Below, one piece after another: positions 45,571 through 61,851 of a DNA stretch of 64,000 bases. A program made the position numbers and the translations under genes. Source of the stretch: Lophium mytilinum (lineage: Eukaryota). The DNA is taken from the NCBI GenBank assembly GCA_010093605.1, contig MU004195.1, forward strand, positions 558,001 to 622,000, given 5' to 3'. The first letter of the stretch is position 1, and every line of letters starts with the position of its first letter. The notes under the pieces are model-generated. The model did not search any database and had not been told where the DNA came from. It saw only the letters and a program-made list of their open reading frames with translations.

Positions 45571-47195
45571 CTACCTATTGGCTCTCTGGTTGGCCGCAGC
45601 CTGTCTCGCGCCTCTCACACGTTTGGTCTGGCCCTGCCCAAAAGGCCGAGCAGTTGACTCCATACCAGCATACACCCTTCCAGCAGTTGGGTGACTACTG
45701 CCTGATTTGATGTAGAACGCGAAATAACTCTCGGCATTATCCCCGCGATATATCTTCGGATCCTGTGAAAGCATCTTGTGCGTTGAATTTCTGACCCTCC
45801 AATCCGAAATCTCGTAGACCGGAGTTCTACCACGGATCACAGGCCCAGTCGTATGAGCGATGTAATGACCTTCGGTAATATTAGCTCCTATGTGTGACAC
45901 AACACCAGAGAGCTCGTAAATCAGGGTCAGATCCTTGTTCTCCTGGAAGTCAGTCAGGTTCAGCGTCTTATTGACTTTAATCTGGTCAAAGTTTTTGAAA
46001 ACAACACCGGTGCTCCCTGCGTTATCTCGCCTAATCTTGACGACCAGTATCTCAGGCGCGGAGACGATCCGTTCGGCCGAGGCTTGGTCTGTGGTTCTCG
46101 CGCAATTATCACAGTTGACTTTTATACTCTGGTCTGTGAACTTGTTGGCAACAACAGCTTGAAGGTTAGTGTCTGGTGTTGGGAATACTACGAGGGGAAA
46201 CTCATCGTCTGCACCGGCAGCTGATGGGCGCGTGGTAGAGCATACTTTGCACGTGTACCGTTGAACGATGCGAGTTGCAAAGAGGCCTTCGTACTGTTGT
46301 TGCCATGTTGGAATACCCACACTAGAGATGGTCAGCTATAGTATAAAGGGGAGGGAAAGATGATTCCGGGTCATGAAGTTCTAGGCACTCATTTACCACT
46401 ACTTAAAGTGCCCCAATTGGGGCCTTATATTTCCACGTGCCATGTCAAGCTTGACTTAGCGGAAACTGAGCTCCCCTTTGACTAGCCAGCTTTCTGCCAA
46501 GGCGGACACTCCCGACAGTATTGTCTAGTCATCAAAAGGAGTAATCAAGCGGTGGTAACTTCGTTTCCGGACTTATGGACTGGACGTAAAGAGAAAATGG
46601 AACTTACGGTCTCAAAGTGTGTAGCATTGCTCGTGAAACAAGCCATTCGAGGAATTCAGCAGCGTCTTCTTGCTGATTCCGGCTCAAGTCATGCCTCATG
46701 TTTGCGCGGCGTCTGATTCCCCATACGGCAGCATCAAAACTAACCACGTGGCTGTCCACACCTCTGCCATCCCAATACCGTTGTGCTATCCTTTTAAGAT
46801 TACAAATTGGGCAGTTCTGAGCTCTGGAGGTGGGGCTGCGAATAGCGCAAGCTGATGCGGGCGTTCCATTGTGCTGCTCTATCCAATTCAAGAATTGTGG
46901 AATATTGAGCAAGCCTTGCATAGTCGAGAGGCGGTAGCACTTTTCTCCGCCATTGGGGAGGCCTCTACTGCGACGGTTGAGGCAGCGAGCGGGCCATTGC
47001 TTAGATATTCCTGCAACCTGTGAGGTGTATTAGCTTATAAAACATATATACGAGATCAAATTGTCTTACATTCGCGGATCGGGTATTTTGTACAGCGTGA
47101 CCCAGGCCGCCAACTCGTCGCTGGCGTAAATCGCGTACTCGATTAGGGAGTGTGGCTCCCGGCTCCAGCCCGTTCAAGATGTTTGCTGGGGCCAT
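45571..47195 (-). CDS. Ubiquitin-specific protease (peptidase C19) paralog 1, 428 aa; introns 47018-47069 and 46322-46607
   Basis: Cys box GLPNGGEKCYRLSTMQGLL, QQEDAAEFL, fingers CKVC/CDNC, SAPEILVVKIRR, His box YELSGVVSHIG...GHYIA...ISD. Confidence 0.85.
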
Positions 47196-47510
47196 GACAG
47201 TATGTATTTTACAGAACTCTAGAGGTCTGAACTGATGTGATATTATTGGCCTTGATGTCTAGGAAACTTGCACCTTTTGAAAGGCGCGACTATCTATGTA
47301 CTTACATGAGTTAAGAGCATAAAGAAACTTGGCCGGCTCTCTTTGTTCTAGCAAACAATATAATTGTTCCTAAGTGCAGACAAAGCTACAGCTTGAATAA
47401 AGCCATCAATGAAAGCTGGATGGTTGCAAAAAATGGCAAATATCTACCAGAACTACGATCATTTGGTTTAACGTGTGAAAGTATGCTGGGCGAGTCATTT
47501 TGGCCTCTTA

Positions 47511-47895
47511 CAGTGACGGGCCACAAGTTTGGGCACACCGGGTCGCCACTGCTAGGCCCCCCCGCCCCCCCAAGGATTCAGAAGATCTATCGGCGATGTC
47601 GGTTTTTAAACAGTGCAGATCAGACTGCCTCTTAACTAACTAGCTGCTTTGCAGCCAGGCTACCCCCTACAGTAGTGTTAAGTAAGCAATATTAGAGCCT
47701 AGCAGTAATAGATCCACGTGTTATAGGATTTCAAAGAACTAAAGGCGATGTTAAGTTTTAAGCAGTGCAGGTTAGACAGCCTCTTAACTACGTAGCTCCT
47801 TAGCAGCCAGGCTACCCCCTACAGTGGTGTCGAGTGAGCAATACTAAAGCCAATCAGTGACAGTTAGGTGTGCCCAGACTTGTGGCCTAGTACTG
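47511..47895. mobile_element. Tc1/mariner-like MITE (385 bp) with internal ~150-bp tandem duplication
   Basis: TA|CAGT...ACTG|TA ends. The 29-bp TIRs CAGTGACGGGCCACAAGTTTGGGCACACC and CAGTACTAGGCCACAAGTCTGGGCACACC match at 24/29. Internal direct repeats at about 47574-47711 and 47726-47863. Confidence 0.85.
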
Positions 47896-48022
47896 TAAAC
47901 ACTCTATCTTGACTCAATCTTATATTCATTTGCTAGGTCTAAAACTTGGGACTTTTTGTACATGTAGTCGCATCAATAAATGAGCGTGTAGCAAAAACAG
48001 AAGGACTACTAGTTAGTTTTAC

Positions 48023-49425
48023 TTATGCTTTCCCTTTGCCGCGCTTTTTCGCGACTCTTCCCCCCATGACTCTCTTGTCTTTTCGCTTCTCCGGCACCGC
48101 CAATTGCGAATAAAGGCCCGTGTTTGTAGCCCGGGTGTAGAATAGTATGTAATTGTGATACGGCGCCGACTGTCCTCCCGGAGGAAAAGTATGTACCTTC
48201 GGATCCCGGCGAAGTGTGGCGGCATTACTCAGAAGGCAGTGACGATCCGAAATTGCGGTAACAACATGATTTTCCGGAGGGCCAGTAGTATGGGCAATAT
48301 AGTGTCCTTCTTGCATGGTCGCCCCGGCATGTGAAATAACACTTGAAAGCTCGTAGAGCAAGGGCATGCTCTTGTCCTCTTGATATGTAGTAAGATCCAA
48401 TTGCTGGTCAGCTCTGACACGGGTCGTTATTTTGTAAGCGCAATTTTTCTTCCTATCCCACCCCGTTCGTCGTAATTGAATGATCAAGATTTCCGGCGCG
48501 GACCTTATGGACGTCACTTCCGAGTGGTCTGTGTTCGCATTACATCTTGCATCCTGACAGTTTATCTGTTGAGTTGTTTGAGGCCTGAAATAATCGCGTA
48601 TACATCTCTGAAGACTGGTACTTGTCACAGTCATGTTGAGAATTGGAGCTTCGTCTATGCTTGGTGCGGTGGTACGCCGCGTTCCGCAGCCACCACAGGT
48701 TGCGTCTCTTCGGACCGTCGTAGCTAATAAGCCTAGGTATTGATCTTGCCAGCTCGCATTTGCCGTAGATTGGCGAACAACACTATGTAAGAGCCATCGG
48801 AGGAACTCTTCTGCATCTTCTTGGCTGGAGTCATCCACTCCGACAGGATACCCATCTTGATCGTTTTGCAAAAAGTGGAGGGGAAAGGGTGGAAGTTGAG
48901 CAAGATGCCAAACCGCACGGTCGAAGTTCCGAAGAAGGCGCTGGAAATTCGCGGGAGGAACAACACCAAGCGCACCACTCCCCCAATACAAATTAGCGAT
49001 GATTTTGAGTTGGCAAACTGGACAGTTGACGTTCTGTGGTAGTAGGCCATCCAGAGAGCATGTGTGAGGGCCCACGTTGTGCTGCTTTAGCCAGTCTAAG
49101 AACTGAGGAATGTGCAACAGGCTTTGCATGGTACATCTGCGGTAACAAAAGTTTCCCGGGTTGCTGAGGCCTCTACTAGGCTGATCATAGTAAAGGATAG
49201 GCCATTTCTTGGAGTACTGTGTGACCTGTGAAAAGCGTCAGCGAATCTTGTCCCTCAGCTTTGAATGTCAATACTTACAGAGCTCAAACGCGCTTGCTGC
49301 AGAAGACTACCTCGGCCCCTAATGTTCTGGGCAGGTCGTTGCCGGGCGCTGCGGCGGAGACGATCAGGAAGCTCGAACTCAGGCTTCAGGCCGTTCGTTA
49401 TGTTTCGTGGTATTCCTCGTGCCAT
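48023..49425 (-). CDS. Ubiquitin-specific protease (peptidase C19) paralog 2, 449 aa; intron 49226-49278
   Basis: Cys box GLSNPGNFCYRRCTMQSLL, SQEDAEEFL, CGGC/CQDARC fingers, SAPEILIIQLRR, YELSSVISHAG...GHYIA...ISD, and a basic C-terminus KKRGKGKA. Confidence 0.87.
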
Positions 49426-49687
49426 GATGAGTGTCTTTTTGTTAAGAAGGGATGAGGATGTTTACGAGAATTCTCAGCCTTCCAGAGGGCACGTAGTGTC
49501 ATTTATGAATGGCCATTTTTGCTATTGTCCATTGCTATTGTCCGAAAGAATAGAACAAAGATTTGGCCGGCTGGGATCTTTATTATACGGAAACAATAGC
49601 ACAATGGCATTATCGTACGAGAAGACAAGGCGAATTGTGGACAAAGAATTAGGGCTTAGAGTGAGACGATGCGTATTATCGTGTTCA

Positions 49688-49764
49688 TCGTGAATAATCA
49701 GTCACGTGATCTGATCTGATGAAATTTGCTGCCAAAATCATATCACGTGACGAAATCTTCACGA
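49688..49764. repeat. Imperfect 28-bp inverted repeat, each arm with a TCACGTGA E-box palindrome
   Basis: 49688-49715 TCGTGAATAATCAGTCACGTGATCTGAT versus the reverse complement of 49737-49764, TCGTGAAGATTTCGTCACGTGATATGAT. Loop of 21 nt. Confidence 0.75.
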
Positions 49765-50000
49765 AAAACACAGTGGGTAGAACATCATGATGTGCAGCAA
49801 GTGAAATCCCTCTAAATGACGATTTTACATGACAGCTCGATGTCATTTCCAGAAGCTGCATATTGAAAGAGTGATTAGACGTATTTAGAAAACCCTACAG
49901 ACCATGCATCACCCTCCATTATTACACCTTTGTCCAACCAAAACGCAGTACACATCTCCGTGATGAGCAACACCACAAAGTCGCCGATTTCGACCTGAAC

Positions 50001-50588
50001 TTAAGACACTGTAATGAACAAGCCGAGAGGCGGGCTAATCCCCTGAAAGAACCTCATATCCAGCCCATGTGCCGAGTCAATCCGGTAGCCAAGCGTCGTC
50101 CCCGCTGCACACGGCCCGCTGTAGATGGTGTAGTCCTGCCCAGCATCGAGATGCTTCACGTCGCCGAAAATCTTTCCAGCGGGAGCATTCGAATAGGTCG
50201 TGCTTGTAGACGCGGGCATAGCCAGTTGCTGAACCGTGATGCCGCCATCGGAGTCAGCCGTGTAAACTGGCCATCGTTGTTGAGATCCGTCCGGGTAGAG
50301 AAAGACGAGATTGCATGTCTTGCCCGCGTAGCTCGTGGGGATGTCAAAGTTGAAAAGGCTGGACACGGTTGGCGAGACTATGCCTTCATAGCTCGTGCCC
50401 ATAGCCGTTTCAGGGTGCGAACTGTCAATCGGAATGATGAGGTGCGGGACTTGGTAGCTCCCAGATAGCTCGTCCGGACTGGACGTTGGCACAGTCGTTA
50501 CAGTCGGCGTGGTTTGACTCGTGATCCTGGTGATGATTGGGTTGGATGTGGTGATAGTATGGATGGAGAAATGCACGGTGGTTCTCAT
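50001..50588 (-). CDS. But2-like C-terminal domain ORF, probably the 3' part of the upstream GH17 gene
   Basis: Thr-rich linker then LSGSYQVPHLIIPIDSSHP...VSSLFNFDIP..YAGKTCNLVFLYP...FFQ...PPLGLFIT. No signal peptide of its own. Confidence 0.7.
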   Translation of the reverse strand: MRTTVHFSIHTITTSNPIITRITSQTTPTVTTVPTSSPDELSGSYQVPHLIIPIDSSHPETAMGTSYEGIVSPTVSSLFNFDIPTSYAGKTCNLVFLYPDGSQQRWPVYTADSDGGITVQQLAMPASTSTTYSNAPAGKIFGDVKHLDAGQDYTIYSGPCAAGTTLGYRIDSAHGLDMRFFQGISPPLGLFITVS

Positions 50589-50761
50589 ACGGGTTAACGT
50601 GCCTAGACTCGGGTTAGAAAGGTTGCTTGCGATGATTTAGAAGTTCGCTCAGCTACTGATCAAAAGCGCTCCACTGCTGCTCGAATTGGACTTGCTACTG
50701 TTATTCTTCACCCCCATTAGCAAGGAAAACGGAAGCACACTACTTTTAGTTGAGCGGTGCT

Positions 50762-51858
50762 TCAGTCTTTATTGCCTGGGGGCAGCAGAGTGGCAATGTC
50801 GCATCCAAGGAGCTGTAGCGATCAGTAGCAAACGGGAACCAGATTACTTACAGCACCGCTGCTCCCTGCTGGGCAGGTCAAATCGAACAAGGGGGTGGTT
50901 GATAGTGTAGGGCCACCAACAAGACCAAAACTTGGGCTAGGCGTATTCGGCTCAGCATCTTGGAGGGTATACCAATACGTGTTGATATTGCCAAGGAGGC
51001 TGCACGCAGTTTGCTTCCAGTATGTCTGGGCATTGTCGATGCTGGCCACAGCCAGATTCTCCGTTGGTCCGCTGACGGGCCAGCCGGTTTCTGTCACCCA
51101 GACAGGCTTTCCTTGAGCAGCGCCCACGGTGGCGTCATAGGCATCGAAAAATGTGGCATTGGAACCCGCAATGTCATTGTCGATGGTGTTTTGAAAGTAT
51201 GGGTACTACACAATAATTAGCGTTATACGCAGGGTGAACGGTACCTACTCACAGCATCTACTCCTAGAAAGTCGCAGGCAGAGATCAGGGCGTTATTGGA
51301 GGCGTTGACGTATGCCGTCCAGGTGTCAACATGGCCGATCACCGCTCCACTGGCTCCAGTTCCCTGGACTGCTTGTCGGACCTGGCTGATGTAGCTCACA
51401 AGCTCATCGGGCTGAGCACCAACCCCGGACTTGTTGATGATTCCCGTAGGGGAATTGCGGTAAAGGTCCTCGCTGCCAACAGAGATGCCAACTATCAAAT
51501 CGGTAAGAGATGTTCCGTATTGGCTGATCGCAGCGTTGAGAGCAGCAATCTCGTTGTTGAAAGCGGCTGATCCCGCGGAGGCCCAGAGGCCTAGGAGGAG
51601 AGTTGTTTTAGTGGAAATGGCCGCGGGAATAGCTGAGATGGGCGTATTTGTCGTTCCGCCCTGGATCATAGTGTACAGGCGTGCACTAGTGAAACCGCTC
51701 GCGCCAACGAGACCTTGTGCAGTCGTGAATTCGGCCTCAAAGTCCGATTGCTGTTTGTTGGCTCCGTTGTTGAAGGTGCTGCCATAATTGAAGCCGCGCA
51801 GCTGAGCATTAGCGGTTGCGAAAGCGGCAGTAAAGCCAAATGCGAGTGAGACGCGCAT
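50762..51858 (-). CDS. eglC: GH17 endo-1,3-beta-glucanase (EglC-like); intron 51206-51252, 3' end uncertain
   Basis: Signal peptide, [77 protein letters not shown]. Confidence 0.88.
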
Positions 51859-52736
51859 GTTGAAGAAGGAAGCGCGAAGAAGAAGTTTTATCGAATTAAA
51901 TGAAGAGTTGAAAGGGCATTCAAGGTATCAAAGGTAGGCGTTGAGAATGCGGAACGTAAGAGGAAAAACTCGTTGCTTAAGAAGTAAGTAGTAGGTGACG
52001 TATAAAGCTGGCCAGGCACAAGACGGCGGATTCTAGCTTGCAAACATTTTGAGAAGTGGAGACCCCAACCTCAACCTCCAGGAAACCGCAAGCCGGGGAC
52101 CGCCCACACGCCGGAGAGAAGTAGTACATGAGCAACTTTTTGTAAGCGACCGCCCGACCTCACCTGTGGATCGCCACCAACGATTTACGGGATTCAATGA
52201 CACAGATTCGCCACACGCGAGGCTCGTAGCCATTGAAATTTCTGTAACTGCCACGCTACGGATCATACGTAGCAGCTGCGCAAGCCGTGTGCGTGTTCCA
52301 CTCATATGCAGATATACTACGGCACACCGGCCGGGGTACAATGCTGTCTTACGAACGAACATCAGGGACATACGTGTTCCTGATGATCGCTTCCGTTCGG
52401 TTGCGGGAGTCAATAGAGCCTTCCGTCATCAAGCTCGAGATAAGATTTGTCCTCTAATTTACGGAACAAAAGAGGAAGTCCTATTGATACTCGTGGCTAG
52501 TCAACAGCTGCGTCGTGGGTTGAACATTAGCTGGGTGTGACCGGGTGAAGTTGAGCCTTGACTCTCCATAAGAGTCACTGAGAGCTACCAGATATTTGCT
52601 AGCGAAACATTTGAGAAGAAAACAGCGACCAGATCCTCATGAAAGATGAAATATGATGGAGATCGATGAAAACGCGTGTCTACGTTGCTTCACGGAAAAG
52701 AGAGGGGTGCCGTCAACCTAAAGTAGTCGGTGACAA

Positions 52737-53372
52737 AATAATCATTCCCCGAACTAGTCCAGTTACAGCGTAGTTTTCTCCCCACATGTTAGACATGCAT
52801 ACGAAGTAGTCCTCCAGGCCTATCCATCTTTCAAGATTGTATGTTGTTATTTCCGGGTGGCCAAGATTAGAGCACTGGTCTCGAGGGCACATGGGGCAGA
52901 GAGAAATCTTCCTTCTCTCCCAATTGGAAGTTTTTGTGCACGCTTTTAGCGAACTGGGCACACGTCTGTAGTCCCTCCAAACCTATTCATCTCTCGGGCT
53001 GACCCGATGTCATTTCCGAGGGCACCCAGATTAGGAGCAGCTTCTTCCAGGGCTCTCATGCCTCTTCATCGTTCATAGTCTTACGATGCCATTACCGGGG
53101 CTCGTAAACCTGGCATCCGTCATTTACATATCGATATCTCCTCTCTCTAGCCTATAAGCGGAAACTAGACGTGTCGAGTCGATTGTTTGACAATGTGCAC
53201 AACTATCTGTAGCCTCTCAGGCCTATTCATCGTTTGCAATGTTGGATGTCGAGCCCGTGGAGGCATAGTATAGAACGTCGCGTTTCCAGCCACGGTCAGC
53301 TATATGAGGACTCTTACGCCTATCCAACTTCTTAATTCTCACGACGAATTTTCTAGTTTCCAAGATCTAGCT
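52737..53372 (-). repeat. Array of degenerate repeats (minus-strand copies), core GGAAATGACATC...GATGAATAGGCCTGAGAG
   Basis: Cores at about 52843, 53006, 53085, 53245 and 53343, with a weak one at 52737. Spacings 163, 79, 160 and 98 nt. Confidence 0.75.
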
Positions 53373-53393
53373 ATATATCGTGTTATAACGGAG

Positions 53394-55048
53394 TTAATAT
53401 GGTAAAGGGCACTGATACCTCCCAAACACTTTCTCCTCTGCTTCTTCAAATTCCCTCATGATCGTCTCTAGTCTCTTTTCGGAACGCGGTACTATCTCAC
53501 ATGCAAAGTCGACCGCGCCCACCAAGAAGCCAGCACTATACCCTGACTCGCTACTAACATCAATCTCAATCTCGCGACCCTCTTCATCTCTCGCAGCCTT
53601 GATGTCGAAGGCCCACAGTATTTTTACCATTCCAATGAACAGGTTGCGCTCTGCAAGGTGCATCCCCGGGCAAATCCGACGACTGGCGCCATACGAATAA
53701 TGATCGCGGTCCCTAGGATTGGCGGCTGTGGCAAGGTGGGAAGCCAGAGTCGCGCAGCCCTCAAAGTGCGACGGATCGAATACATCCGGATCTGGGAAGC
53801 GGACCGGGTCGTGGTTTAGGCCGTAGGCATTGAGAAAGATGGTGCTACCTTTCGGAATACGGTATCCATCAACAACGTCGTCCTCGGCCAAGACATGCGG
53901 AAAGGCTAAAGGGACGACAGGTCGCCATCGCATGGTTTCTTTGACGATAGCCGCGACGTAGGGGAGGTGGGTGCGATCAGCCCAGCCGGCGGACCTGTCT
54001 TCTCCGACAACAGCGTCGATTTCGAGGTGTGCTCTCCTTTGCACGGCGGGCCATTTAGCCATGGCGTTGATGAAAGCGATGATCATGGACGAGGAAGTAT
54101 CCGACCCCCCTTCCATGACTGTTCCGCAGAGAAATGCGGTTTGGTGTTCGTTGAGACCGAGATTTTCTTTCTGATCGAGGACATTTTCCATGAAAGATTG
54201 CTTGTTTCCCTCGATGCCGCGGCGTTGGATGACGAGGTCGATATACTGGGAGTAAAGGGCATTCATTTCTTTGTGAACGCTTCTAGCTCTTGAGGCCCAG
54301 TTGCCAAGGAACCGCTCTGGTATCCAGCGAAGGAACGGGAAGATATCGACTGGAGGTGTATTCCCAGGTTCCATGACCTGAGACCAATTTTCCATCAGGG
54401 CGTAGAGTTTCTTCATATGAGGAGTTTCTATATTGGGAGTGCGGATGCCGTAGACTGCAGACCATGCTCAACTTAGGAAGCAATAGCGAACGAATGAAAT
54501 ATCTTACTGAGGCTCATGATGATGCTGTTGCTAAAGCGCTTTGAGTGCAGCATATGACTACCTGGGGAGACGCACATGTCTCGAAGCATCTGGGTTGCCT
54601 CAGCGTTCACGAGAGTGACGTAGCTCTTCTCTACTACGCTTTCGTTGAAGAACTGGTGGACGAGCTTTCGGTAATTCCTCCATAGGCTTCCGTAATTCAT
54701 TGTCAGAATGTGATCCCCATCCGTAATGAGTGTATGGCCGACGTGGGAAACCGGTCTTCCACTGTAGATGGAGCTTTTCTTATCCAGCATCTCCTTCACC
54801 AGTCGCCGGTCCGTCAAAACAATCGCAGTCGTAGAGCCCAATTTGAGAGAATACATTCCGCCGTAATGTCTTGCCCATTCAGTGAACTTCAAGTGGGTTC
54901 TTCTCACTGCTATCTGGTGTAAATTCCCGATAATGGGTAGTGTCGGAGGGCCTGGAGGTAGATTGCCGGTCCTCCTACCCGACCAGAGTAGGGCATAAGT
55001 GATAGAACTAAAGACGACTATAAGAACGGCAGTGTTGATATCATACAT
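53394..55048 (-). CDS. Cytochrome P450 monooxygenase (CYP619/CYP620-like); intron 54455-54507
   Basis: N-terminal anchor, PPGPPTLPIIGNLHQ, EGGSDTS (I-helix), KETMRW (ExxR), FDPSHF, heme motif YGASRRICPG. Confidence 0.95.
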
Positions 55049-55080
55049 GTTGATGGTGGTAAAGACGGGGTCGGCTTAAA

Positions 55081-55133
55081 CACCGACGTGAGAGGCACCG
55101 ACGTGAGAGGCACCGACGTGAGAGGCACCGACG
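55081..55133. repeat. 15-bp minisatellite (CACCGACGTGAGAGG)x3.5 in the P450 5' UTR/promoter
   Basis: Three perfect units plus CACCGACG, starting 33 nt upstream of the P450 ATG. Confidence 0.95.
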
Positions 55134-55359
55134 AAGCTAGGAAATGGGAGATTGAGAGGAAGAGGAACTTTGATTGCGAGGGAAGACATTCGGAACAAGC
55201 GGGGGTGCATCGGTTGAAGGCAAATAAGCTGTGAGACATGCGGAAGGGACTCGTCCGAATTGTCTGAGTTGTACATGCTGTGCTACAAGCTGGTCCGGCA
55301 ATGAATGGCCTTTTGATTGGCTACCTCATATGCTTATATCCCAGCCCCACCCGGCGATG

Positions 55360-55915
55360 CGATGCTCTAATTAAAGACACTGGAAATGATATCATGAGAT
55401 CTTGGACGGTTAATGGACCTCAGAGGCGACAGATGGTTATTTGGGGTGTTAAAATGGCAGTCCTACACGCCCGCTTGATGATGCAAAGCCACAGAGAGAA
55501 AGCATTGCCTTAGAGAAGAGAGGCGTCCAATCTGCAGGCTATGGAAATGACATCGCAGGCATCAGGAAGATGAGTGGGCCTGAGAGGCTCTTTATAGTCA
55601 CCTGCGGCGTCAAAACGGTAGTCTCGCACCCCTAACTAGAAGATAATACAACGTCAAAAGGATGAGGGATTAGGCTCGAGAAGAGGGTCGTCCAGTTTGC
55701 CGATCGCCGGAAATGGCATCATGAGAATTGGAAGGCTGAACAGGCAGGACAGTCCTCAGATGGTTAACCCATTCCTGGACAGACGTGCTCCAGTCTGCAG
55801 CCCCCGGAAACTACATCGTGAAAATCAGGAAATTGGATAGACAAGAGAGTCTTCAAACAGCTGAACACGACTAGAAATGCAGTGGTCTAATCTACACCTT
55901 CACAGACTTGACATG
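55360..55915 (+). repeat. Array of the same degenerate repeat family (plus-strand copies)
   Basis: Cores GGAAATGATATC 55382, GGAAATGACATC 55543, GGAAATGGCATC 55709, GGAAACTACATC 55806, and a partial at 55904. Spacings 161, 166, 97 and 98 nt. Confidence 0.8.
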
Positions 55916-56083
55916 TGGTTTTTCAAAGGATTTTCAATCAAGAGAGAGAAAAGAACGCATTCACACTACAAAGGTATCTCGTACGATCCAAGACAGTTCT
56001 CAGACTTCACCAACGAGACACCACAATACCTCTAGTCGTTACGCCAGTGGAAGCAAAGCCTTTCCGAGGAAGATCTCAACCCT

Positions 56084-57343
56084 TCAAATAGAAGACGGCA
56101 GCGTAAATTCCATCCGGACGTTTTTCAAGGCAGACCGCTCCGCAATTTTGCGCAAGTGATAGCCAGCAATTTCATCCTGAACAATGCCCTCTCGCAGCAT
56201 AGTCATCTGAACGTTGACAGTTTCCAAATTTGGTAGCCATGTAGAATCCGCATCCGCCAGGTCATCAAGATGACCTATGATCGCAAGATTGCAATTCTTT
56301 AAGACAAGCGACACGAGCGACGACGGTAGATGGTCCACGAGACGCAGTCCGGTTCCGTGCCTCCATGCGGAAAGTTCGCCTAGTTGGAACTGGTCCCAGA
56401 TCAATGTGTGTAGCTTTTGAAAGTCCCTCATCGAGCCCTTCTCATTCGAAATTAGATCAGCTTGAAAGTGCGAGTCACTCAAGCTCCAGTGAATTGTCTC
56501 GAGAGAGCTGCGATGCTCCAAAAGATATGTTCCTGGAGAACGGGCACACCATGACGTGTTGCCGACAGAGACGAAATTCCTTAATGCTTTGCTAGAGCTA
56601 ATCAGTTTACTGAAGACGCCGGCAGAGAACGAACCCTCTTCAAGTATGATTGAGGCGACTGAGGAACTCCTTACGGGGCATTTCCATTGGGAGGCATCAA
56701 TAATGCTATGTACTGCACCCCTAAGTTGAAAAGTCTCCAGCGAGGGTAAACAAAGGAAGCCAGAGACAGTAATAATATCGATATTCCATTTCGAGTCTCG
56801 GCAGTCAAGATCAACAATCTTCAAATAACCGAAAATTCCCGGTATTTCCCTAGGAGCCTTTTGCAAGACCAAACTCAAAATGAGCCACGAAACGCGAATG
56901 AGGTCCATTGATTCGAGATGAAGGTATTCTAATTTTGGAGCAAGAGTCATAATGAGAAAGAAGGCCACTGCCTCCTGCGGGCGACCCTCGGATACAGAAG
57001 TTGAAGTTCGAGGAAAGTCCTTGGTGTCGACAAGGCGTAGGATGGTATCAAGCTCGCCGTTGTACACTCGCTTTACTCCACGTAGTGCAAGCCTCCTCAC
57101 GTGCGCAGCCAAGTCCGGCCGATCAATGATGGTGTTGGCAAACGGTGAAAGTTCACGACGCACGTCAAGATTGACATATTCATGGTAGAGGAAAGGGTTT
57201 GCGAGAGTGTTGAGTCTCTTCGAGGTGAGTGAAAGAGCGAAGAACGTGGACTTTTGGAGGCGGGCGGAAAGATTCAAAGTTGTACGCACAAAGGAAAGAA
57301 TATCCAAAAGAAGTTCCGAGGGAAGATCTAGCAGCACGGCCAT
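56084..57343 (-). CDS. F-box-like domain protein with LRR-like C-terminus
   Basis: MAVLLDLPSELLLDILSFV...LSLTSKRLNTLANPFLY...FANTIIDRPDLAAHVRRL. Intronless. Confidence 0.75.
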   Translation of the reverse strand: MAVLLDLPSELLLDILSFVRTTLNLSARLQKSTFFALSLTSKRLNTLANPFLYHEYVNLDVRRELSPFANTIIDRPDLAAHVRRLALRGVKRVYNGELDTILRLVDTKDFPRTSTSVSEGRPQEAVAFFLIMTLAPKLEYLHLESMDLIRVSWLILSLVLQKAPREIPGIFGYLKIVDLDCRDSKWNIDIITVSGFLCLPSLETFQLRGAVHSIIDASQWKCPVRSSSVASIILEEGSFSAGVFSKLISSSKALRNFVSVGNTSWCARSPGTYLLEHRSSLETIHWSLSDSHFQADLISNEKGSMRDFQKLHTLIWDQFQLGELSAWRHGTGLRLVDHLPSSLVSLVLKNCNLAIIGHLDDLADADSTWLPNLETVNVQMTMLREGIVQDEIAGYHLRKIAERSALKNVRMEFTLPSSI

Positions 57344-59347
57344 GGTCTCGTGGAGCAAACGCTTCCGGTCAATACGGTGTTGGTGGATGTGGTGAAGTCT
57401 CACCGCCTCAATGCTTCATTTCGGAACGAAGAGGGGAACCAAGGCGCTAGTCTAACCTAGACCTAGCACGATCTGTACAAAAATAGAATCCTAGACCCCG
57501 GTTTCCTGGTTTGCGAGCCCACCTACTGCATACCCATGTCTGATCTCTAAATTTGCTACTGAAGAAGCCCTGAACGATAAATATACTTTCTTGAGCTTGA
57601 ATTCGGGGACCATTGATCTTTTCTTGGGGAGTGGCGTTAGTTGCAAGTTTAGAACTTCGGCCTCGGATGCAAGCACTCGCAATGCCCTCTTTGAGATCTT
57701 TCCCTTGCTAGGCAGTCCAAAAGGCGTCGTTAGTAATCGATCCGAGGTCTGCTAATTGCTTTCTAACCGCCCTGTTTAACTGGCAGGTGGAAAGGGGCTG
57801 CTTCTTAAGAAACCCGAGAGGCCCGGTGCTCTCACACACTTCTTCAGCATCGCTTTGCCTTGACTACTGTCCTCACAGTCCTCCGAATCATGATATCGGG
57901 TCATTTCGAGCTAATGTAGGTGGCTGGGCCGGGAACAACGACGCCGAAGCGAAGGAGCTTACCCCTGTTCAACCTCATCCCTATCAGGATATCGCGCTAT
58001 ATGGGAAGCAACTAGAGGAGCTAAAATAGTCACGGAGACGTCACATTGAGCTTTTATCTGATCTGGATTCTGGATGCAGTCATGAATTACGATGTCTGAA
58101 TCGAATAGTGGGGGTTCACGACGATATGTGGACGTGGGAATGGGCATACGCAGTGCTTTGCAAGCTGACCTCCTGTACGTCTCCTTCCTCGCTGACCACC
58201 TGACACGAGAAAAAGTGGCTTGCAGCAATCTCTTGTACATAGCCCGTGTGGCGTGACGACGAGGAAGGGAGGTAAGGTTGACAGGCCGCTGAGGACGCTG
58301 ACGGAAACTGTACTCGGGCTATCCTAACCGAACGTTTTGCATGCAGGTCGTAATTGAATGGAGAGGGCTCATGGCTCTGTGCTCCCTATTGGAGACCTCG
58401 CTTTCACAGGCCTACGTTGGGTTAGCTGTCCTGGCTGTCCAGGCGACCGAAAATGCACATATACCCGACAGCTGTGCTCGCCGTACTGATATGCGGACCA
58501 CACGGAAGCCTTTCAGTCTATCCTTCATGAGCCAAGCGAGGATGAAAATCAGATCAGAGAAGCCCTATTGCTTGGACGGTCAATCAATTCCATCAACCCA
58601 AGTATACGCAGGAAGTGTTGATCCAGGCTACAAAAGCCCTTCCGCCGTTCGTGAGCTTAAAGCCCACCCAACTCTAGAAAGCAGCCACTATTTTTTCATG
58701 CTGCGGAAGGACCGAAAGAGATTCTATGTGGCTTCCAAAGCCCTGAGCACCAAGACGTCTTTCCAGCCATAGGTTCTGTAAGCACATTCTCTCGCCTGAT
58801 TGCATCGATCTTCGACGACAACTATCAACTCCTTGTCACGCCCCGCAGCTGCCCTACCTCATCCCGGGTGTGTCAGCCGCCGGCTGCTATCTAATAGGCG
58901 ACGGCTCCGGCGACTTTCCTGGCGGATTGGGCTATCCACTCGCTCAGAAGAGAAGTGACGGGGCCGGAGGCTGATAGCGCCGCGTTGCGCAGAAGATCCA
59001 GACCGTCAGGGCCGTGAAAGAGAGCCCGGGTTCCCCGTCCTGCCAGACGGCGCCAGTCTGCACGCATGGCGAACTCGCAGCTCGCATGCAAGCCGCCCAA
59101 ACGTGCCGCTGGTAGTGCACCTTGATCACGAGTAAAAAGCAACGATTAGCTTGCGCGCATAGCGACATACCGTATGCGGAGAGTAGTGCTTCGTGCTGTT
59201 GCGCAACATACTTTACCTTTAGTAGAGCCCATGGCCGCGCTAGGAGGTAGACCATCGAACAACCGCAGACAAACCGGCACTCTGGGCAGCCTTCCGAGGT
59301 TCATTTAAGCCTTGCAAGATTCCCATCTCCCGGGTCTTGAGTGCCAG

Positions 59348-61404
59348 ATGGCTGCCACACGCCTACGCATATTAGTGCTTAGCACGGCAAGCCTTCTGGC
59401 AACGGTTTCAGCAACAATACCAGCAGTCTTCGAGCCACTCGACGCGATAACATACTTTTGCGGGCGGTGGGAGCACTCCTCCATTGTCAAAAATGATATA
59501 CTTTACATCAACGGCGGCGCCGAGACTTTCAATTATCCTTTGGCCTTTCAGCATGGAAACTGGAGCAACAATACTTACGGGCTCAATACATACCTCCTTG
59601 AATATGACCTGAAAACCTCCTGGGACTGGAAGACCAATATTAGCTACTCCGCCTTCGAGAAGACGCCGAATCCCGGCACTGGTACTCTGCCTCCGAATTT
59701 CATTCGCGGAACCATGTTTCAAGGGCCTGCGAATGATTCAGAACTTTATACATACGGCGGCACTACGTTTCGTGGGAACATGTCAGTCGCGAACCGGAGC
59801 GCAAGCTATTCGCAACAATATTCTCTGTGGTCCTTCGACTCCGCCAGCAACGCGTGGGGTCAGTACGACCTCAAGCAAAACTGGAGGCCCAATTTCGGCG
59901 CGGCTGCGGAAGCGTATGACCAAGGCCTCGCGTTTTATCTCAATGGCCAAATCGATGTCGGTACAGATCAAGGAACCCTAGACTTTGGAAACACCACCAT
60001 ATATATAGATGGTATGCTTGTCATTGACCTGGTAAGACAAACCGCGGTGAACATCTCTACTACTGGGATGAAAGACTATATCCCAAGAGTCGGAGGAGCT
60101 TTACAGTACGTTCCCGGAGTAGGCGACGACGGCGTCTTGGTGGCAATTGGGGGTCAAGTAGATGAGAAGTCTAGAGTCAGCACTCCCACGAGTGGGCAGT
60201 TGGTGAGTTCTCTTTTTTTATGCTTCAAGACGTCAACCTGGTGGTACACGGACAGTTTAGCGCTAGGAATGCGTAAGCACCAGACCCACTATTGCCCTTA
60301 CACTTGCATTGACGCCTTCCCGTACGATTGGCTAATACGCTCTACCAGCTGAACTTTACAGCCGTCGATGTTTTCGATATTGGGTCGTACCTAACTGATC
60401 CATCCAAAAATGGTACTTGGTATAGCCAAATCACGACCGGCGAAATACCTCTTCCACGTACCGAGTTCTGCACCGCCATAGTCTCCGCGCCGGATAACTC
60501 CAGTCATAATATGTACGTCTATGCTAAGCGAAGACATGCTCTCGCGGAGCACTGCCTTGGTTCTACCTCTCTTCCCGTTCGACTTGCGCTAACACCACTT
60601 TACAGCTACGTCTATGGTGGGCACAACCCTCTCACCGCCGTAATATACGACGACATCTACGTTCTCTCCCTGCCTACATTCACTTGGACACAGATCTTCA
60701 CAGGTAAGTCTCCACGCTGGGGCCACACCTGCCACATCGTCGGGAACCGGCAACTCCTCACAGTCGGCGGCCAAACACATACCAGACCCGAAAAAGGCTG
60801 CGATTGGGAATACAGATCCGTCGCCGTCTACGACATGACAAATCTCACTTGGGGCAGTATATACAACGCGGAAGCCGCGCCATGGGAAGTCCCAGGTGTC
60901 CTGTCGAACACGTTGAACGGCAAGAACTCCGAGCCGGTTGGCGGCTGGGATGAGCCGGGCCTCGAAGCCATAATGACAAAAACGCGTATCTGGTCAGCCG
61001 GCCCGGTAACCTCAACACCACAAGGCCGCTCCAGCAGACATCACATCCCCAAAGCCGTCATCATCGGCGCAACAATCGGGGGCATCATGGGTCTTGTTCT
61101 CATAGGTTTCGCCGTGATGCTCTTCCGCCGGGGCCACTTCATACGAAGAGCGAAGGAGCGCTTCGAGCTCCAAGGAGTGCATAAGCTGGAGATGAGCCAA
61201 GACTCCGAGAAGAAGAAATACGAGCTACAGGGCACGTTCGTGTGCGCGGAGATGGACGAGGTGTGCTCGCCTGCTGAGGCACCGCGTGATACGGTCACGT
61301 ATGCGGCAGAGCTGCCGGCTACGACTGTGCAAAAAGGAGCGCTGTGGGGGGTACCGATCGTGCGCACGCCAACGGAGGAGAATGCCGAGTTTCAGGCGCC
61401 GTGA
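59348..61404 (+). CDS. Kelch-repeat type I membrane protein; introns 60203-60348 and 60513-60605
   Basis: Signal peptide, Kelch blades (LYINGG, LYTYGG, LVAIGG, YVYGG, LTVGG), PRWGHTC, TM helix AVIIGATIGGIMGLVLIGFAVMLF then RR, and cytoplasmic ELxG/ELP motifs. Confidence 0.88.
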
Positions 61405-61678
61405 TCTGAGTTACCTTTTGACTGGCTGAGCTCCTGGCCATGGGGGCGCCCCTCACGGTGGTGTTGGGCGAGCAAGGCTGAAGCCGAAGTGGCTAGATAT
61501 CTGTAGATGGGATAGGTTATGAGAAATGACTACATATAAAGGGCCAAGTTTCATGCTCTGTAATCTGATTTACCTTTTGACTGGCTGAGCTCCTGGCCAT
61601 GGGGGCGCCCCTGACAGTGGTGTCGAGCGAGTAAGGCTGAAGTAAGTCGAAGCGGCTAGATATCTGTAGATGGAATAG
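61402..61678 (+). repeat. Direct repeat of ~115 bp (61402-61515 and 61561-61678)
   Basis: TTACCTTTTGACTGGCTGAGCTCCTGGCCATGGGGGCGCCCCT...GGCTAGATATCTGTAGATGG occurs twice. Confidence 0.95.
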
Positions 61679-61851
61679 ATAATTAGAATCTCTACATATT
61701 AGGGGCCTCAGGGGAAAAAAGGTGGATTTTCTCATCTCTATTTTGTTTATCCGAAGACTTTCTATTGGTTAGTTTTCGCTGACTCAGCATCAATGCCGAG
61801 AGATGCAACGTCCGCCCAATGATTCCTAGAAACACAACGTCAACCCACAAG

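Follow-up and report, generated by a model that had tools for sequence, protein, structure and literature searches.

Tandem monomers scattered through a genome in short arrays are known from TIR-220, a repeat of the foldback element Tetris of Drosophila virilis (PMC4079207); its monomers have a stretch in common with a DNA-transposon family and may be found in either orientation at a single locus, and for foldback elements target duplications of 8-10 nt are given. Short arrays with variant units in recurring order, neighboured by other MITE-like repeats, are likewise described for the tandem-repeat-containing MITE DTC84 of Donax trunculus (PMC3879986), while in Meloidogyne a satellite library (PMC3694981) comprises monomer families that have little identity to one another yet retain a short conserved box and are shuffled between arrays. 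Gene order in Dothideomycetes alters mainly via intrachromosomal inversion, being locally reversed between related species, a pattern termed mesosynteny (PMC3516569), and inverted duplications can be left behind by staggered breaks (PMC1885836).

Here we describe a locus of Lophium mytilinum at which a cytochrome P450 gene is bracketed by two oppositely oriented arrays, within a window (the whole stretch of DNA analysed) of 64,000 nt. Like TIR-220, the arrays are short and scattered, with tandem monomers of 150-220 nt, a likeness of 30-45 nt to a DNA-transposon family and, at some loci, both orientations; unlike in Tetris, neither a complete element nor a terminal inverted repeat nor a target duplication of 8-10 nt was found, the copies are far more decayed (mean identity 0.51) and the host is a fungus. 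They resemble DTC84 in their neighbours and in a long-then-short unit order, seen at the P450, C6:231 kb and C12, but no conserved cassette, microsatellite or target duplication flanks them, and their units group mostly by locus rather than position. The shuffled, low-identity monomers with a conserved box recall Meloidogyne; here, by contrast, the arrays are short and intergenic, with no sign of the box marking junctions. Finally, the block is flanked on both sides by copies of a 108-125 nt inverted duplicate, which, together with a local reversal of gene order, matches the staggered-break inversions and the mesosynteny of the sources, with the differences that the duplicate here lies within an older repeat array, that repeat DNA goes on beyond the right junction, and that the breakpoint repeats of PMC3516569 are simple repeats rather than 161-nt arrays.

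Structure of the P450 locus

The P450 gene (53394..55048, minus strand; Pfam p450) is intact, encoding 533 aa with one 53-nt GT..AG intron (54455-54507); a 533-aa record matches its exons at 55048-54509 and 54461-53397, and relatives at 57-59% bear the source label 'family 619'. A perfect 15-nt tandem repeat of 3.5 copies (55081..55133, plus strand), unrelated to the arrays, lies 32 nt upstream of the start. Domain matches identify the right neighbour as an F-box gene (56084..57343, minus strand) and the left as an EglC-type GH17 glucanase gene (50843..51858, minus strand).

A preliminary description of this DNA had proposed at least five minus-strand units to the left of the gene and four or five plus-strand units to the right, with spacings of about 160 and about 98 nt recurring on both sides. 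Both points are borne out by an independent profile which, built from 49 copies outside the window, recovers all ten units, of which the minus strand carries five (52772-53353) and the plus strand the other five (55363-55931), spaced by 97/161/78/164 nt on the left and 160/165/98/97 nt on the right. The 60-90-nt unit proposed at that time corresponds to the conserved head of the monomer, the full repeat being about 161 nt long with a short form of about 97 nt.

The outermost unit of the left array, L1 (52772..52874), consists of the head and an internally deleted remainder, and groups with the array at G000:C15:253.4-254.3 kb (hereafter C15:253 kb; support 99/96). It is followed towards the gene by the long monomer L2 (52875..53038, 164 nt; 0.67-0.69 identity to five C15:253 kb units), the short monomer L3 (53039..53116), which is cut to 78 nt and best matched by R3 (0.68), the long monomer L4 (53117..53277, 161 nt) and the short monomer L5 (53278..53353), all on the minus strand. 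L5, which begins about 40 nt past the P450 stop, is 5'-truncated, the profile matching only from model position 31-32 (53344), and in the unit tree it is the sister of R4 (support 86/88). L3 forms the border between units like those at C15:253 kb and units like those of the right array. On the plus strand, 314 nt upstream of the P450 start, the right array opens with the long monomers R1 (55363..55522, 160 nt) and R2 (55523..55687, 165 nt), continues with the short monomers R3 (55688..55785, 98 nt) and R4 (55786..55882, 97 nt), which like R1, R2 and L4 are defined by profile match and spacing, and closes with R5 (55883..55931), a profile-matched head 3'-truncated at model position 47-49. Beyond R5 an alignment identifies a tail (55932..55985, plus strand) that matches the unit closing the C15:253 kb array at 23/26 nt.

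Tandem Repeats Finder was blind to both arrays. It is extremely improbable that the units derive from a former repeat-protein gene, represent a structured RNA or arose as an artefact of assembly. One frame of the box does read G-N-D-I in several units; against this, neither 161 nor 97 nt is a multiple of three and the box lacks a codon rhythm, Rfam gives no match for the units up to E=1, and contigs of two DNA runs (50000-55110 and 55104-59000), possibly the assembly source and not independent, span both arrays unchanged. In a further run, X3, which is RNA only by guess and skips two introns, one contig extends from 56591 to 55700, covering part of R3 and R4-R5, and another, on the EglC side, reaches 52678; X3 is thin over the P450 and has a gap over the left array, neither of which counts as evidence.

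A family of dispersed satellite-like arrays

The unit is in no way peculiar to the P450 gene; it belongs to a genome-wide family. At least 78 copies are present at the P450 locus, as one lone fragment elsewhere in the window and at 15 loci outside it, on 10 contigs: 56 copies were found in 260 kb searched, against none in a shuffled-plus-reversed control of twice that size, and 22 more at 7/7 further loci. These numbers are lower bounds that refer to about 0.29 Mb of loci, the genome having been profile-searched in part; word-based DNA searches across the genome detect the family poorly, returning 1 to 4 outside places per query. Pattern matches at C3:1700 kb, C10:1159 kb, C20:701 kb and C23:153 kb were left out of the counts, and one at C1:460 kb was dropped, there being no profile match at that place.

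Spacing is closely maintained in the long form (n=36, mean 161.7, SD 1.3) and amounts to 96-98 nt in the short form, the mean pairwise identity across the family is 0.51, and a tree of 59 units groups them mostly by locus. The largest cluster among the loci covered contains 12 units. Fixed-length, non-coding, head-to-tail monomers thus form short arrays at many unlinked loci, as is characteristic of dispersed satellites, and the repeats beside the P450 are remnants of an old family of such arrays. Of the 15 outside loci, 13 have a single orientation and the other two are back-to-back pairs with a centre of 61-68 nt and no gene between, in which the reversed units group with the local ones.

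No common termini were found among 28 flanks and centres. Helitron-like ends, seen by eye, were rejected, no termini being common between loci. The head also contains a branch point and an AG that could be read as intron-like, a reading set aside since inspection by eye showed no 5' splice consensus. Immediately 3' of the arrays at C12 and C18, though not at the P450, there is a palindromic family (B), whose profile misses the units. A pattern scan of metagenomes gave two matches, which, both falling outside arrays, are taken as chance, and a full-text search of the literature retrieved no description of the family or of comparable fungal arrays, although it could be an unclassified repeat in the libraries of genome papers.

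The 13-nt box and a possible MITE origin

Within arrays, a 13-nt box decays about three times more slowly than the rest of the monomer. Among 21 position-defined monomers from five arrays the box deviates by 0.07 from the array consensus as against 0.21-0.25 elsewhere, a contrast equalled in 0/20000 column permutations; six further monomers give 0.10 against 0.21, whereas the corresponding motif enjoys less protection across 27 dispersed MITE copies (0.17 against 0.22). The arrays, whatever their origin, might accordingly be kept as phased binding sites that control or insulate the P450, which is compatible with the origin favoured below and which we regard as rather unlikely. A period of about 161 nt is close to one nucleosome repeat, so that the box would recur about once per nucleosome repeat, and some arrays whose bodies can no longer be aligned keep the common head and a 161-164 nt period. 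Yet the loci were recovered via the box, which biases its conservation upward, only 2/10 boxes at the P450 are perfect while 3/10 have 4-5 changes, and amplification dependent on the box would give the same pattern without host function. Nor does the constant length require selection, given that the gap rate per substitution in the monomers (0.033) equals that in the MITE copies (0.039), by which a length constraint is ruled out. Zn2Cys6 half-sites contain conserved CGG triplets, and an array of such half-sites, advanced earlier on the strength of a CGGAAAT motif, is rejected: CGG precedes the box in only 13/59 units, TGG in 11, and the best-kept letters are ACAT. What stands of that regulatory proposal is the unusual conservation of the box. 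Still more doubtful is the wider idea that a superfamily of transposon-derived arrays, their bodies by now too diverged to align, might keep the 13-nt box at a period of about 161 nt because they serve the fungus as nucleosome-phased protein-binding arrays, of which the P450 pair would be an insulating or regulatory bracket made by inversion.

Judged by its sequence, the head module probably derives from the interior of a Tc1/mariner-type MITE, a family marked by a TA duplication and CAGT ends, and such an origin for the repeat family as a whole is plausible, if only indirectly shown. The likeness is confined to the 30-45 nt head (p about 0.008), and the MITE profile has no significant direct match among the 59 units (best E=1.3), but intermediates matched by both the MITE and the monomer profiles occur at C1:2047 kb, C15:1262 kb and C13:541 kb. 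The MITE profile also finds matches around MITE-interior arrays elsewhere, e.g. at 47506-47900 and C13:541 kb; in 52-56 kb it finds none, and neither MITE terminal repeats nor a TA duplication surround the P450 arrays.

Gene order and the origin of the bracket

The P450 is an ordinary resident gene, as shown by its link to the F-box gene. An 84% orthologue in Mytilinidion resinicola adjoins the same F-box gene, and JGI contigs with an identical length of 5840 nt, probably one and the same contig, carry homologues of the two genes. In the window the genes succeed one another as F-box, P450, EglC, But2 and UCH, whereas the M. resinicola accessions run F-box KAF2811936, P450 ..937, UCH ..939 and EglC ..943; this order, inferred from accession numbers and carrying no strand, places an interspecies breakpoint within 51.9-53.4 kb and suggests that the DNA to the left of the P450 is an inversion breakpoint between the two species.

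The two arrays share an inverted duplicate, segment A, of which alignments place the left copy, comprising the 3' part of a short unit and the head of the next, at 53229..53353 (minus strand) and the right copy at 55807..55931 (plus strand). Identity is 70.4% over 108 nt (53246-53353 / 55807-55914, E=6e-8), or 68% over 125 nt under softer scoring. The gapless 48/71 match of the reverse complement of 53245-53315 to 55845-55915 given in the preliminary description is exact, with 17 of its 23 mismatches being transitions by hand count, and the best gapless 108-nt score between left and right, 76, exceeds that of shuffled controls (mean 46.9, maximum 52 in 200 shuffles). A starts at the L5 truncation and ends at the R5 truncation, and thus lies as an inverted duplication at both proposed breakpoints, as staggered-break inversions would leave it. 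Its transition share (24/30) is the highest among 49 family alignments at >=64/100, the others pooled giving 0.58 (p=0.04 for the top-ranked pair, uncorrected). RIP mutation of the repeats is ruled out by the context of these transitions, mostly CpG (9/24) with three at CpA, and by the indices TpA/ApT and (CpA+TpG)/(ApC+GpT), which are 0.80/1.18 on the left, 0.59/1.46 on the right and 0.76/1.18 in the window.

We consider it probable that old dispersed arrays, a resident P450 and the splitting of a single ancestral array by a local rearrangement of inversion type together account for the bracket. An array of the order R1-R2-R3-R4-L4-L3-L2-L1-tail would have grown upstream of the P450 through unequal exchange or slippage; either a local staggered-break inversion or an inverted duplication with subsequent deletion would then have moved the L block, reversed, to the 3' side of the gene, leaving A at both junctions, after which the arrays would have decayed. 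The earlier suggestion of an array split by inversion fits best in this form, with A at the truncations, L5 and R4 as sisters, and L1-L2 and the right tail both resembling the C15:253 kb array, as expected if once contiguous; a single clean staggered inversion misfits, because repeat-derived DNA continues past R5, and a second step is needed. A weak tail-like remnant that L1 itself bears also counts against the model, though it is not significant.

That two arrays of one family instead arrived or grew independently, their orientation being a coin toss and A a family resemblance, is unlikely, if by no means negligible. Mean left-right identity (0.53) is below that of the left array with C15:253 kb (0.59) or of the right with C8 (0.56), the best gapless scores for other pairs of loci are on a par with A (76/108, as against 78 for left and C18, 73 for left and C15:253 kb, and 73 for right and C6:231 kb), and at least 15 other loci exist. 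Nevertheless, two of about 17 known loci only 2 kb apart are improbable without a local cause, the ends of A coincide with both truncations, A is rich in transitions, and the C15:253 kb-type units on the left complement the tail of that type on the right. We regard as very improbable the proposal that the arrays are inverted arms of a foldback- or MULE-like element with a captured P450 as cargo. Tandem repeats do occur in the arms of foldback elements (PMC4079207), the units point outward on both sides, the two back-to-back loci offer a parallel, and L4-L3 and R2-R3 can be aligned in mirror register (62% over 190 nt). Against this, R2-R3 are closer to the unlinked G000:C6:231 kb (68% over 212 nt), the mirror pairs show identities of 0.45, 0.58, 0.68, 0.56 and 0.48 around the family mean, and the outer ends, L1 and R5 (0.45), are not inverted repeats. 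Target site duplications of foldback or Pack-MULE-type elements are 8-11 nt long; none was found at the outer ends, whose longest direct and inverted repeats are 7 nt, a chance level (for direct repeats, <=7 in 258/300 random pairs), though an old one may have decayed. The absence of common termini among the 28 flanks and centres also counts against a cargo element, as does that of a donor, since the genome contains no further close relative of the P450 (next best 48-58%), and the P450-F-box adjacency in M. resinicola largely refutes capture. There is no sign of movement of the block or of a function of the bracket as a pair.

Significance

The result is a modest one, namely an undescribed family of dispersed repeats, of great age, in the genome of a Dothideomycete, situated at a likely inversion breakpoint. 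It provides a concrete case in which to ask whether decayed arrays, besides simple repeats, mark the inversions behind mesosynteny and, if the box is under selection, it would represent a rare instance in which satellite-like DNA of a filamentous fungus is bound by a factor.

Repeat arrays beside the P450 gene

In the window (G000:C15:558001-622000, in a genome of 43.4 Mb) an intact, minus-strand P450 gene (55048-53394, one 53-nt intron) is flanked by two arrays of a degenerate repeat, of which the left has five minus-strand units (L1-L5, L1 outermost; 52772-53353) and the right five plus-strand units (R1-R5, R5 outermost; 55363-55931). These arrays are a real feature, since all 10 of 10 units are recovered by a profile trained on 49 copies outside the window, and gapless alignment over 108 nt scores up to 76, whereas 200 shuffles never exceed 52. 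Contigs of two DNA runs, which may be the assembly's own source, span both arrays unchanged. The gapless 48/71 match given in the preliminary description is exact; counted by hand, 17 of its 23 mismatches are transitions, and a longer version covers 108 nt with 70.4% identity.

A dispersed repeat family

Searching the genome by DNA sequence and by pattern led to further loci, the three patterns giving 0 or 1 control matches. Over 260 kb, iterated profiles detected 56 copies, and zero in a shuffled-plus-reversed control twice that size; all seven of the loci fetched later added copies (22 in total), while one fetched pattern match, at 460 kb of contig C1, held none. The monomer is about 161 nt long (36 spacings, mean 161.7, SD 1.3), with a short form of 96-98 nt, and 59 units have on average 0.51 identity to each other, versus 0.39 for random pairs. 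In a tree of these units clustering is mostly by locus, as local tandem growth would give. The preliminary description proposed to check whether copies recur in inverted pairs around other genes; 13 of 15 loci outside the window are single-orientation, and at the other two, C8:2037.6 kb and C11:1285.5 kb, units stand back to back, 61-68 nt apart around a geneless centre. The reversed units at both group with local forward ones, and local unit inversion therefore appears habitual in the family. Common to all of several further arrays (L069, L070, L072, L075) are a head of about 33 nt and a period of 161-164 nt, their bodies being unalignable. A lone minus-strand head module lies at 49836-49867, adjoining a 91-nt imperfect palindrome (49681-49771). 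A second, palindromic family of about 130 nt is arrayed in tandem immediately 3' of the units on contigs C12 and C18 (L057:2313-4570 and L058:2705-3159) and is also scattered elsewhere.

The genome also contains a MITE of about 237 nt (52 matches in one search) with terminal inverted repeats and TA-CAGT ends, which we take to be a Tc1/mariner mark. Its remnants occur in the window at 46381-46583, 47506-47900 and 61381-61707, two of the three being tandemly duplicated internally, in segments of about 150-160 nt, and its interior forms tandem arrays of period 145-172 nt at the latter two places and at C13:541 kb. Since a MITE copy interrupts one unit at C6:231 kb, the arrays predate that insertion. 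Monomer and MITE likely descend from one ancestor, to judge from sequence comparison: they have in common a head of 30-45 nt (p ~0.008 with a pooled consensus; of nine consensuses from single arrays, four fall below 0.05), and both profiles match units at C1:2047 kb and C15:1262 kb, the MITE profile having no direct match to the 59 core units. Two past waves of transposon expansion, including DNA transposons, are described for L. mytilinum (PMC12910237). We found no published description of the family, which genome-paper supplements or repeat libraries may include; its arrays are dispersed, satellite-like and probably transposon-related, a known kind of sequence.

A conserved 13-nt box

Within the head, 13 positions ending in TGACATC differ by 0.07 from the consensus of the array they belong to, compared with 0.21 over the remaining head and 0.25 over the tail (21 of 35 long monomers, omitting six from the window, three from C12 and five terminal ones). 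Such conservation was reached by 0 of 20000 column permutations. The effect is inflated because the loci were located through the box, although in-array neighbours were taken by position. Six further monomers, from two of the seven later loci, give 0.10 versus 0.21, and the corresponding motif of the MITE, over 27 copies, is less protected (0.17 versus 0.22); at the P450, 2 of 10 boxes are perfect. Constant monomer length does not speak for selection, since monomers and MITE acquire gaps at equal rates (0.033 versus 0.039). The proposed Zn2Cys6-type half-site does not fit, CGG being retained in 13 of 59 units, whereas deviation at ACAT is 2-12%. Most simply, array turnover would have required the box to be intact, for example as a transposase or recombination site; turnover sites of this kind have been proposed for nematode satellites (PMC3694981) and for foldback arms (PMC4079207). 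Binding by a putative host factor is possible.

The P450 gene and its neighbours

The P450 protein is identical to a Lophium mytilinum record and 84% identical to one of Mytilinidion resinicola. The gene is resident and not cargo, because it and its right neighbour, an F-box gene, have orthologues with consecutive accessions in M. resinicola (F-box KAF2811936, P450 KAF2811937) and the genome holds no second close copy. JGI contigs of equal length carry homologues of the pair at 41% and 72-73% identity, probably on one contig. The P450 C-terminus (53394-53405) has three residues more than the M. resinicola and JGI homologues, which could stem from a stop-codon point change or from the nearby junction, and the leader contains a perfect 15-nt tandem repeat of 3.5 copies (55081-55133), recent and unrelated to the arrays.

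To the left lies an EglC-type glucanase gene. The order in the window is P450, EglC, But2, UCH, and in M. resinicola the accessions after P450 run UCH (..939), then EglC (..943), an opposite order (window 45571-51927) implying local inversion. If accession number tracks position, the two species carry the EglC-UCH block in opposite gene order, and one breakpoint would fall within 51.9-53.4 kb, the interval of the left array. EglC and a But2-domain ORF (50004-51858) are fused in one 536-aa record, and run X3 splices them together at 50601-50851, the M. resinicola EglC having 323 aa without But2. The two tandem UCH-family peptidase genes (45571-49237) are fast-evolving, the left one lying in two reading frames, which an intron or a break could explain.

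Origin of the bracket

The preliminary description considered a foldback or MULE-like element with the P450 as cargo. Mirror pairs, from outer to inner, have identities of 0.45, 0.58, 0.68, 0.56 and 0.48; the only mirror-register alignment, of L4-L3 with R2-R3 (62% over 190 nt), is bettered by that of R2-R3 with the unlinked C6:231 kb (68% over 212 nt). Direct and inverted repeats between the outer ends reach at most 7 nt, which is chance level, and 28 flanks and centres have no common terminus, so that such an element is very unlikely. The suggestion of one array split by inversion fits best. An inverted duplicate of 108-125 nt, segment A (left copy 53229/53246-53353, right copy 55807-55914/55931), starts at the 5' truncation of L5 and ends at the 3' truncation of R5; L5 and R4 are sisters (support 86/88); and segment A ranks first among 49 family alignments in transition share (24/30; 0.58 for the rest taken together, p=0.04 without correction), its transitions falling most often at CpG. 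RIP indices of the arrays are the same as those of the whole window. In the tree, L1 and L2 fall with the units of the C15:253 kb array (99/96), to whose end 23 of the 26 nt following R5 are identical, with no other genomic match, the search pattern having been built from those two places and its control giving 3 matches. Against a split array, the identity of segment A is equalled between unlinked loci (78, 73 and 73 of 108), and the right junction is not clean.

Combined, the truncations at segment A, the sister units, the transition share and the links to C15:253 kb suggest a single ancestral array, R1-R4, L4-L1 and tail, which would once have lain upstream of the P450. A staggered inversion or inverted duplication would have carried the L block, reversed, to the 3' side of the gene, and a later deletion or second inversion would have followed. 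Inverted duplications can arise at staggered breaks (PMC1885836), and intrachromosomal inversion is described as frequent in this fungal class (PMC3516569). The bracket is thus probably the product of local rearrangement around an ordinary P450 gene.
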